A model generated the notes under the pieces. That model worked only from the letters and a program-made list of their open reading frames with translations. It ran no database searches and was not told the DNA's origin. Shown here in pieces: positions 60,797 to 62,221 of a stretch of 64,000 nt of DNA. The stretch is from Polyangiales bacterium. GTDB taxonomy: Bacteria; Myxococcota_A; Polyangia; Polyangiales; Houyiibacteriaceae. Location of the stretch: contig JBFGKE010000010.1 in assembly GCA_041576815.1 (NCBI GenBank), forward strand, positions 16,599 to 80,598, written 5' to 3'. The stretch's first letter is position 1. Every line of letters starts with the position of its first letter. A program made the position numbers and the translations under genes.

Positions 60797-61090
60797 CTAG
60801 TAGGCGCGCGGAAAGTCCCTGATATCCACCTGGTCGAGGGCAAACCGGATGAGGGCGCTCCGGCTGATCTTGCGATGGCCCCGCTTCTTGAGCTTCGCCA
60901 CCATCTCGTCGAGCTGGGCCAGATCTTCTTTGTAGAGGGAAATACAGATCACATCGTAGTGGTCGGGCTTCTTTTTCGAGCGTGCGCGACCGCGTTTGTT
61001 TCCTTTTCCGTAGAAACGGTCGCGCAACACCGCGCTCACTTCGTCCTGGTCCAAGACCTGTCGCACTCCTGCTCCTTCGCGTCGCTTCAT
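60797..61090 (-). CDS. Small basic protein with C-terminal ribbon-helix-helix-like domain
   Basis: VICISL (strand), [16 protein letters not shown] (helix), [10 protein letters not shown] (helix). Starts 8 nt after the parA stop with a GGGG SD-like sequence. Confidence 0.75.
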
Positions 61091-61098
61091 GTGTCCCC

Positions 61099-62178
61099 CT
61101 ACGAAGCCGCTGAGGCCCGAGCCTGGACCGGCACCGGCTGCCTCGCCTCCACCACTTCGGTCAATCGCTGAACCAAACGCATGTAGTCCTCGGCGCCGTG
61201 GCTCTTCGGCGCATACTCGAAAATCGTCTGTTTGGCGCTCGGCGCCTCACGGAGCTTCGTGTTGATTCGAATTGGATCGTAGCAACGCGCCTCGAAGTTC
61301 TGCCGAAGCGTGAGAATCGCCTCCCGCGAAATTCGGTTCCGCACGTCGAAGAAGGTCGGCAGCACGCCGAGCAGCTGAACGTCGTGCTGCAAGAGCTCCC
61401 GAACGCTCTTGATCGTTCGCAGCACCTGCTTGACGCCGACCAGCGAAAGGTAGTCGCAGGCGACGGGTACGATGACGCTGTCCGCGTAGACCATGGCGTT
61501 TTGGTTCATCAAGGAGAGCGCGGGCGCACAGTCGATTACGACGGTGTCGTAGTCTCGGCAGGCATCCCCGAGCCGCTCCCGCATGATGCGGTCCCGGTTC
61601 GGTCGCTCCGCCAAAAAGAGCTCGGCCGCCGCCAGCGACTCGTTCGACGTCAACACCTCTAGGCCTTCTCGGACGGGAACGGCGACCTCGGATGCGTCCG
61701 CGCCGTTGACGAGCACATGGTAGAGCGTGCGCTGCCCCGCGATGCCGAGCGACGCCCCTACGTTGCCTTGCCCGTCCGCATCGATCAGGAGCACACGCCT
61801 TCCAGATTCGGCAAGGCCCGCGGCCAGGTTGACCGACGTCGTGGTCTTGCCCGTGCCGCCCTTGTGATTGAAGACTGCAATGCGCTTCGGCGCAGCGCGA
61901 AGCGGGCCGACCTCGCTCGAACGGTGGCGGCCGCGCTCTCTGCAGGCCGTCGAGCAGAAGTAGGCGCGACGCCCGTCGCTCACGCTCATCTGATAGGGAA
62001 ACTCGATCTCGAAGGTCGCGCCGCAGATGTCGCAGGCGTGCACGCCATCGGCCCCCAGCAGGAGCCTCTGCTGGCACGCCGTCGAGCAGATGTAGATGTA
62101 CTGCCCGTTTTCTTCGCGGACCTGGTAGCGAAACCTGGTCTCGAAGCGCTTCTCACAGACCTGACACGTCGATTGCAT
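61099..62178 (-). CDS. ParA/Soj-family ATPase with two N-terminal TRASH/FCS-type Cys4 motifs
   Basis: Deviant Walker [27 protein letters not shown]; two C-x2-C-x22-CSTAC repeats. Confidence 0.92.
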
Positions 62179-62197
62179 CCCGACTCCTTCGAGTTAT

Positions 62198-62221
62198 CGA
62201 AGTACTTCACGAAGCACTTCA
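62198..62221. promoter_or_regulatory. Tandem palindromic operator-like repeat upstream of parA
   Basis: CGAAGTACTTCA CGAAGCACTTCA: 12-bp period, each unit with a GAAG-NN-CTTC palindrome. Confidence 0.6.

Follow-up and report, generated by a model that had tools for sequence, protein, structure and literature searches.

ParA-type ATPases are a general device for placing chromosomes, plasmids, and large protein assemblies, and how the cargo is found is a question for every orphan ParA. The question is raised here by a locus in a 64,000-nucleotide (nt) stretch of the genome of a Polyangiales bacterium (contig JBFGKE010000010.1; the whole stretch, at its full length, is called the window), in which an orphan ParA with its own pair of nucleic-acid-type fingers is followed by the gene for a small protein. 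This ATPase, called finger-ParA below, is present in more than a third of the sampled Myxococcota genomes, in one copy each. According to the list of open reading frames (ORFs) and a reading of the sequence, the two-gene unit and a tandem palindrome upstream of it all lie on the minus strand of the window, to which the feature coordinates below refer. The finger-ParA gene (359 amino acids, aa) occupies 61099..62178 and the small partner gene (97 aa) occupies 60797..61090, both with the stop codon within the coordinates, and the small gene starts 8 nt after the finger-ParA stop. The genome (3.69 Mb) has a separate canonical parA next to parB on another contig, and finger-ParA is therefore a second, orphan ParA; parB was not found in the window, as the original prediction for this DNA, made from the sequence alone, had also noted. 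The reading favored here, at a probability of roughly 0.55, is that the locus is a chromosomal, autoregulated module of ParA, adaptor, and operator, of the kind represented by ParF/ParG, delta/omega, and SegA/SegB, with the addition of two N-terminal zinc fingers.

The small protein and its predicted docking on the ATPase

The small protein has an N-terminal helix (residues 6-27; 61010..61075) with the motif DEV..VL...FY, in which V18, L22, and F26 are invariant in 13/13 partners and which is modeled as helices at 9-13 and 16-27. A basic, variable linker follows (residues 28-44; 60959..61009) that is rich in K and R, differs in length among partners, and has a low predicted local distance difference test score (pLDDT). 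The remainder (residues 45-97; 60800..60958) is assigned to a ribbon-helix-helix (RHH) domain by the model and by structure comparison with VIA-align. This C-terminal half is nearly invariant in an alignment of 13 diverse partners, and its model consists of an extended segment (45-53) and two helices (54-69 and 77-87), with block pLDDT values of 89-96 over residues 51-90. The partner had been described originally as a 97-aa protein with a basic N-half and an RHH-like C-half, and both the model and VIA-align predict the RHH fold, with the basic region in the middle.

When the partner model was compared to 48,161 chains, the VIA-align list was almost wholly made up of RHH proteins. The best match was the RHH N-domain of TraM (3omy_B; Z 5.7, root-mean-square deviation (rmsd) 1.7, 47 residues aligned). 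Other matches include CdbA (Z 4.8, rmsd 2.6, 47 aligned), the RHH domain of PutA (Z 4.7, rmsd 2.5, 43 aligned), NikR (2ca9; Z 4.7, rmsd 2.0, 42 aligned), Arc (Z 4.4, rmsd 2.8, 49 aligned), ParG (Z 4.4, rmsd 11.1, 73 aligned), and omega (Z 3.9, rmsd 5.0, 48 aligned). A domain of 50 residues can be expected to give modest Z values such as these, and the weight of the predicted fold lies in the uniformity of the RHH list. A Foldseek search of the PDB with the partner gave no match at E <=0.001, the best rows being TraM and an RHH antitoxin at E >1; NCBIfam had no match for the small protein, and the ESM Atlas returned only the protein's own Myxococcota clusters and one CopG cluster at rank 25. 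The small protein has one copy in its own genome and 367 relatives, and every named relative is either "hypothetical" or has a stray automatic name.

Identity of the small protein with CdbA was considered separately and rejected: a profile of 13 partners searched against solved chains returned three unrelated weak rows at E <=10 and no CdbA, and the structural score of CdbA (Z 4.8) is within 1 of the scores of other RHH proteins. One residue of the small protein, C49 (60944-60946), lies in the middle of the DNA-reading strand VICISLY, a position at which cysteine is unusual for an RHH strand; it is invariant in 13/13 partners and is a serine in some distant ones.

Co-folding of the ParA alignment with the partner alignment gave a score of 0.61 (median of three runs), with a best control of 0.00; a mark of 0.61 was reached by 116/157 solved complexes and by 2/215 mismatched pairs. 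The three runs share at least 94% of their contacts, and the pLDDT of the partner is at least 78. In the predicted interface, partner residues 6-22 contact ParA residues 243-257, 269, and 283-298, and the fingers are uninvolved. Co-folding thus supports binding of the partner to the ATPase, with the N-terminal helix as the predicted contact.

The tandem palindromic site

Two tandem palindromes, GAAGTGCTTC-GT-GAAGTACTTC (62199..62220), form a candidate operator that is unique in the genome and conserved in relatives. The plus strand at 62198-62221 is CGAAGTACTTCACGAAGCACTTCA, and the coding strand is TGAAGTGCTTCG-TGAAGTACTTCG. The site is located 20 nt upstream of the finger-ParA ATG and 6 nt upstream of the GGAG (62184..62187) that can be read as its Shine-Dalgarno sequence, 5 nt before the ATG. 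A putative -35-like element with a T run, TTTTTTGACC (62240..62249), is present in most of the Polyangiales loci listed; it lies 17 nt before TTGAAG (62217-62222), and the coding strand upstream of finger-ParA can be written as TTTTTTGACC-N17-TTGAAGTGCTTCGTGAAGTACTTCGATAACTCGAAGGAGTCGGG-ATG.

With up to one mismatch, AAGYRCTT-N4-AAGYRCTT occurs once in the window and 0 times in each of 100 shuffles, and the 3.69-Mb genome as a whole contains a single copy of the exact tandem. Single GAAGYRCTTC 10-mers number 89 in the genome, of which 59 are GAAGCGCTTC. A third GAAGCGCTTC in this region, at 62143-62152 and 47 bp from the tandem, was discounted: it lies inside the ParA ORF (codons E-K-R-F), its residues vary in orthologues, and it is probably a codon coincidence. 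Within the genus, the DNA between the T run and the repeats varies and TTCTGGTTGAAC-CACTTCAGGAAGTACTTCGATAAC is kept, and distant Polyangiales loci carry AAGCGCTTCGATAAGTGCTTCG-like sequences, with a perfect 16/16 in four of them (L084, L092, L100, and L110). For 74 loci, the upstream DNA was long enough to score the pattern AAGYRCTT-N4-AAGYRCTT over the 150 nt preceding the gene. The best match was at least 14/16 in 53 of these and at least 13/16 in 63, and the upstream match was better than any in the rest of the locus (both strands) in 55, tied in 7, and was worse in 12. About eight divergent loci, including that of Chondromyces apiculatus, do not have the motif. Judged by sequence, the putative operator is conserved across Polyangiales in the same place, and the tandem palindromic site that had been pointed out just upstream of the Shine-Dalgarno sequence holds up well.

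The sequence allows two readings of the promoter. If it is TTGACC-N17-TTGAAG, the repeats fall on the start site; if it is TTGAAG-N18-GATAAC, they fall within the spacer. A consensus scan called neither of them and showed no minus-strand terminator between the genes, and among 20 sequencing runs listed no RNA run covers the stretch. In both cases, RNA polymerase would be blocked by a protein on the repeats; the promoter and operator roles are best called putative. With only one site of two repeats, which overlaps the promoter region, the arrangement looks more like an operator than like a multi-repeat centromere; the operator may at the same time serve as a minimal centromere, as segS does beside segAB.

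The ATPase domain

The Soj-type ATPase domain of finger-ParA comprises residues 98-345 (61144..61887) and aligns with Soj over its full length. Pfam matches are AAA_31 at residues 98-268 (E 7e-50, 169.8 bits) and CbiA (80.4 bits), both above the cut-off; no NCBIfam model was above its cut-off, ParA_partition having 90.3 bits against a cut-off of 180. Among solved structures, a ParA family protein (8ray) and Thermus Soj (1wcv/2bek) are nearest, with E ~1e-46, and FleN, McdA, and MinD are more distant (1e-13 to 1e-11; FleN-type E ~5e-13). Finger-ParA is 37% identical to the canonical ParA of the same genome. The deviant Walker A (xKGGxxK[ST], with the signature lysine) and the Walker A' and B aspartates are present, and K106, G107, G108, G110, K111, T112, D133, D135, D216, and R280 are invariant in 31/31 orthologues.

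Finger-ParA carries the sequences FDVRNR and NTKLREAPS. Aligned with Thermus Soj 1wcv, FDVRNR places its R opposite that of "ydgrt," the arginine to which the invariant R280 corresponds, and NTKLREAPS is opposite "rnvrlaeaps," with K307 on the R of "nvrl." These Soj positions are presumably those of non-specific DNA binding. The original prediction held that the ATPase is Soj-like and retains basic residues at the nucleoid-binding positions, and the invariant R280 agrees with this if the positions have the presumed role. By sequence, the ATPase is Soj-like and closer to chromosomal Soj than to other solved ParA-family proteins.

Distribution among Myxococcota

The finger domain and the small protein were each searched for in a sample of 401 Myxococcota genomes. 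The finger domain was found in 149/401 genomes, with one match each except for one genome with two, and the small protein in 99/401, with one match each (a positive control was run). Both genes are present in 89 genomes, and in 87 of these the finger match is followed, on the same contig and strand, by the small gene at a distance of 1.0-1.7 kb, including one (G042) in which the pair spans the ends of a one-contig record. In the other two (G140 and G185), the genes are on different contigs of fragmented assemblies. Viewed by locus, 28/30 of those found with the finger domain have a complete small gene, with one copy cut by the contig end and one locus ending too soon, and 76/80 of those found with the small protein have ParA upstream, with one masked and three ending too soon. 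By these counts, the pair is closely linked in other genomes too; that it would be universal does not follow, as no RHH gene was matched in 60 of the 149 finger genomes.

Ten genomes have a match to the small protein only, and in eight of these the small gene is directly preceded by a ParA that has either a single finger or two divergent ones. Single-finger ParA variants are directly upstream of the RHH gene in L138, L140-L143, L145, and L146. Two loci from one genus (L139 of G275 and L144 of G260) keep the RHH gene and have no ParA in the fetched stretch; in the former a purH-like gene is in the place of ParA, and in Chondromyces apiculatus (L116) purH is upstream of finger-ParA.

Neither gene was found in families f23 (0/29), f26 (0/12), and f27 (0/11). 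Family f20 (Bradymonadales) includes Bradymonas sediminis, Persicimonas caeni, and Microvenator marinus, whose proteins have only the database names "AAA family ATPase" or "ParA family protein"; Chondromyces apiculatus DSM 436 is a further named carrier. In the Bradymonadales loci (L117-L119, L128, and L129), finger-ParA is followed not by an RHH gene but by a conserved protein with an N-terminal membrane helix, two copies of which (460 and 483 aa) matched no Pfam family. This protein may be an alternative partner or a cargo. Taken together, finger-ParA is the core that is conserved across Myxococcota, to which Polyangia and some other lineages add the RHH adaptor as an accessory. The natural variants (one finger, no adaptor, or a different neighbor) form a comparative series for the contributions of fingers and adaptor.

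In five complete or near-complete genomes, finger-ParA is 5 to 31% of the chromosome away from parB, and no consistent relation to parB or dnaA was found. In G235, G180, G013, G321, and G176, dnaA and parB are themselves 39-46% of the chromosome apart, that is, nearly opposite.

Proposed mechanism and the regulatory alternative

In the favored reading, the 97-aa protein would dimerize through the RHH domain, whose fold is predicted by the model and by structure comparison. RHH dimers would bind the two AAGYRCTT palindromes, which are 12 bp apart and overlap the operon's own putative promoter, and would thereby repress the operon. The N-terminal amphipathic helix of the partner is predicted to dock on the ATPase domain, and the conserved residues suggest that an ATP-bound ParA dimer would sit on the nucleoid by means of its Soj-type basic residues. 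What the pair would then attach to the nucleoid is either the complex of adaptor and DNA or a cargo bound by the fingers. The two fingers are carried on a tether that is flexible and basic, and would most likely bind nucleic acid or a lineage-specific partner, possibly in the role of the N-terminal DNA-binding domain of type Ia ParA. The pair may serve segregation or cargo positioning, as originally suggested.

Several results weigh against this reading. With regard to the proteins, the partner scores below the Pfam cut-off for RHH_1 (17.3 against 20.5 bits), with 4/13 members matching at E <=0.05, and the window's own ParA scores below the Pfam cut-off for zf-FCS (PF06467; 21.0 against 22.4 bits). 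The complex score was obtained with custom alignments, and the model may remember solved ParA-peptide complexes. The docking helix has no invariant basic residue among the 13 aligned partners, and therefore stimulation of the ATPase by an arginine or lysine finger is not supported. With regard to the site, the operator consensus was derived from the same loci that were scored with it, many of which are close kin; a consensus scan gave 0 promoter-like (sigma-70-type) sites here; and two repeats at one chromosomal site are far fewer than in plasmid centromeres. With regard to distribution, 60 of the 149 finger-ParA genomes gave no match to the small protein, family f20 has the fingers in 32/34 genomes and the small protein in 0/34, and a profile search did not find the small protein in any of five whole genomes without the adaptor (0/5; a positive control was run). 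The ATPase can therefore work without the RHH adaptor, and the adaptor is therefore lineage-restricted.

The alternative that survives best, although it is unlikely, is a purely regulatory pair in which the RHH protein represses the operon and perhaps other genes, the ATPase is a co-repressor or anti-repressor, and nothing is positioned. Its models are FleN, which modulates FleQ, and the joint autoregulation by type Ia ParA and ParB. In its favor are the single two-repeat site per genome, which overlaps the promoter region, the partner helix, in which no basic residue that could stimulate hydrolysis is invariant, and the presence of antiactivators of the FleN type among the solved structures related to the ATPase (E ~5e-13). 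However, Soj (E 1e-46) is a much closer relative of the ATPase than FleN, the Soj-type arginine is kept, and finger-ParA persists in the 60 genomes without RHH. Moreover, ParG, SegB, and HpaB have the same adaptor build and are reported, in two preprints, to be centromere binders in the studied systems.

The zinc fingers

The two fingers are contained within ~95 residues ahead of the ATPase and are followed by a basic linker. Both have the form C-x2-C-x22-C-S-x2-C: finger 1 comprises residues 5-35 (62074..62166), with C5, C8, C31, and C35 invariant in 38/38 N-domains, and finger 2 comprises residues 49-79 (61942..62034), with C49, C52, C75, C79, F56, and Q63 invariant in the same 38/38. The two repeats had been reported originally in this form, ahead of a Soj-like ATPase, and the residues are as stated there. 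The N-domain model (mean pLDDT 78; block pLDDT 83-89 for finger 1) has two copies of a strand-strand-turn-strand-strand-helix arrangement and then a low-confidence tether. The sub-threshold zf-FCS match in the window's ParA falls on finger 2 (residues 49-81), and orthologues score 25.9-31.8 bits.

The published TRASH spacing has four cysteines in the arrangement C-x2-C-x19-22-C-x3-C, and both fingers fit it. A Foldseek search of the PDB with the finger domain gave no match at E <=0.001; the only rows with a probability of at least 0.9 are archaeal and eukaryotic large-subunit ribosomal chains, again none at E <=0.001, among them 4v9f_U (template modeling (TM) score 0.58, rmsd 1.9, 41 columns, 32% identity). 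Such ribosomal chains are presumably L24e, a ribosomal member of the TRASH-like group. The ESM Atlas had no usable match for the finger domain. A finger-domain profile searched against 1.84 billion representatives matched 784 proteins at E <=0.001, 107 of them at <=1e-10, and 15 of the listed matches were passed to Pfam. Six of the 15 have ParA-type ATPase domains (three full-length and three short or partial), four combine an array of six to nine fingers with an HNH or restriction-type (MTES_1575/DUF559) nuclease (P0282, P0351, P0324, and P0287), two are eukaryote-type C2H2 proteins, and three have other zinc fingers only or no family. By association, the nuclease fusions suggest a DNA-binding role for fingers of this kind.

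The fingers themselves could be the DNA reader, with finger-ParA binding the promoter site as type Ia ParA does and the RHH protein being a later accessory that does not read the palindromes. The wider distribution of finger-ParA than of RHH (149 versus 99 of 401 genomes) is consistent with this, as are the nuclease fusions of related fingers. A further point in its favor comes from five RHH-less families, in which a rare palindrome, CCATATATGG, flanked by (G)…(C), is found just upstream of finger-ParA (L127 and L130-L133, in G354, G129, G249, G099, and G184). It has 1-6 copies per 6-10 Mb genome, one of which is always before finger-ParA, and by its sequence it is a candidate operator whose reader is not encoded beside it. 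With CCATATATGG before finger-ParA in RHH-less families, a specific promoter element is therefore a general trait of the family. However, the palindrome differs between loci with and without RHH, as expected if RHH reads AAGYRCTT, and RHH proteins typically bind 8-bp dyads that recur after about one helical turn, as in the operators of Arc, CopG, and omega. The different motif where RHH is absent fits RHH as the reader of AAGYRCTT and is also compatible with DNA reading by the fingers, and the fingers as sole reader of the palindromes is a rather improbable explanation.

A metal- or redox-gated module had also been proposed, in which the TRASH-like cysteines would sense copper, zinc, or oxidation and gate the ATPase. 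The C-x2-C-x22-C-x3-C spacing fits the published TRASH pattern, and the RHH strand VICISLY has a cysteine that is invariant in the 13 aligned partners; however, that cysteine is a serine in distant partners, the eight cysteines of the fingers never vary, which is the pattern of structural zinc sites, the nearest folds are ribosomal zinc-ribbon chains, and no metal-handling genes were linked in the 20 loci scanned for neighbors. Metal or redox gating is without support, and a switch of this kind is very unlikely.

Genomic context

The pair is located among core genes, as had been noted originally. Downstream and on the same strand are guaB and guaA, identified with Pfam and NCBIfam. Upstream of finger-ParA, at 62269-63999, is a GyrB/ParE-like gene that is cut by the window end; GyrB models score higher than ParE (677.9 versus 584.5 bits), and neither cut-off is reached by the cut gene. 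A topoisomerase IV-like B subunit had been named as the upstream neighbor. A neighbor of this general type is present, but the score favors GyrB over ParE and the gene is next to the pair only in the window's genus and one further locus; the link of the pair to a topoisomerase gene is local. Pfam annotation of 148 ORFs in 20 loci did not reveal a conserved neighbor beyond the pair, in a scan whose greedy ORF picking masked true genes in four loci (L103, L125, L127, and L130). In Polyangiales loci, urocanase and an amidohydrolase are often downstream on the opposite strand.

The guanine-plus-cytosine (GC) content is flat across the region (0.61-0.66), neighbors of the pair are stable within the genus, and no mobile-element genes were found in the neighborhoods scanned (20 loci). 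On the basis of the flat GC and the one copy per genome across the phylum, the pair is not a recent insert. That it is the remnant of a plasmid or prophage partition cassette integrated in the chromosome is hardly credible: the order of repeats, ParA gene, and RHH gene is classic for type Ib partition on plasmids, but the one copy per genome in 149/401 genomes from many families, the stable neighborhood, the flat GC, and the lack of mobile-element genes in the neighborhoods scanned all speak against it.

Comparison with known systems

The type Ib plasmid partition layout consists of ParA, a downstream RHH gene, and upstream repeats. The original prediction likened the locus to this layout, as represented by TP228 ParF/ParG and pSM19035 delta/omega, and the likeness is sound in that a ParA-type ATPase gene is directly followed by the gene for a small RHH protein and a repeated target is upstream of the operon. 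The flexible N-terminal part of the adaptor meets the ATPase in type Ib and, by prediction, does so here, and ParG and omega are among the structural matches of the partner. However, the module described here is chromosomal, single-copy, and vertically inherited; it has only two repeats instead of the many of a plasmid centromere; and its ATPase is closer to chromosomal Soj and has a ~95-aa two-finger extension, whereas type Ib ParA is short and has no extra N-terminal domain.

The archaeal SegAB and HpaAB systems are similar in being chromosomal two-gene operons, and their adaptors are reported to combine an RHH motif with an ATPase-binding region at the N-terminus. In the preprints on these systems, the site of SegB is next to its own operon, segS adjoining segAB, and HpaB has the same build of N-terminal helix and RHH. 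These systems differ in being archaeal and unrelated in sequence, and their ATPases have no zinc fingers. SegB is also reported to bind many other loci, whereas the tandem site here is unique in the genome. Thermus thermophilus Soj (1wcv/2bek) aligns end to end with the ATPase and has the same Walker, DxR, and EAPS motifs (E ~1e-46), but it works with ParB and parS and has no N-terminal fingers.

Type Ia ParA proteins such as P1 ParA and F SopA have an N-terminal extension of ~100 residues for site-specific DNA binding and autoregulation. Finger-ParA resembles them in having an extension of similar size ahead of the ATPase; the type Ia extension is a helix-turn-helix (HTH) instead of zinc fingers, and the partner is an HTH ParB instead of an RHH protein. 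A broader proposal is that finger-ParA represents a third build of partition-type ATPase across Myxococcota, in which two L24e/FCS-type fingers recognize the target as an analogue of the type Ia HTH and the partners are interchangeable and lineage-specific (RHH in Polyangia, a membrane protein in Bradymonadales, and no partner gene close by in other lineages). Such an ATPase would organize or position a specific chromosomal region or nucleoid-bound complex beside ParABS. This proposal is tentative, and is better regarded as doubtful than as probable.

CdbA of Myxococcus xanthus is a small, myxobacteria-specific RHH protein tied to chromosome organization (PMC7156744). The partner is likewise a small RHH protein by prediction and matches CdbA in structure (Z 4.8, rmsd 2.6, 47 aligned). 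However, CdbA has 67 aa, no ParA-docking N-terminus, and no sequence match to the partner, and is not reported beside ParA in the available part of that publication (PMC7156744).

The original prediction also stated that no characterized example of the fusion was known. No description of a zinc-finger ParA was found in the literature, subscription journals not being covered, and the names in databases are generic, in agreement with that statement. The module offers parts that can be tested separately, namely the docking helix, the RHH domain, and the unique 22-bp site. All parts of the module are of known kinds; the fusion of fingers to ParA, its chromosomal spread through the phylum, and partners that can be exchanged are not.

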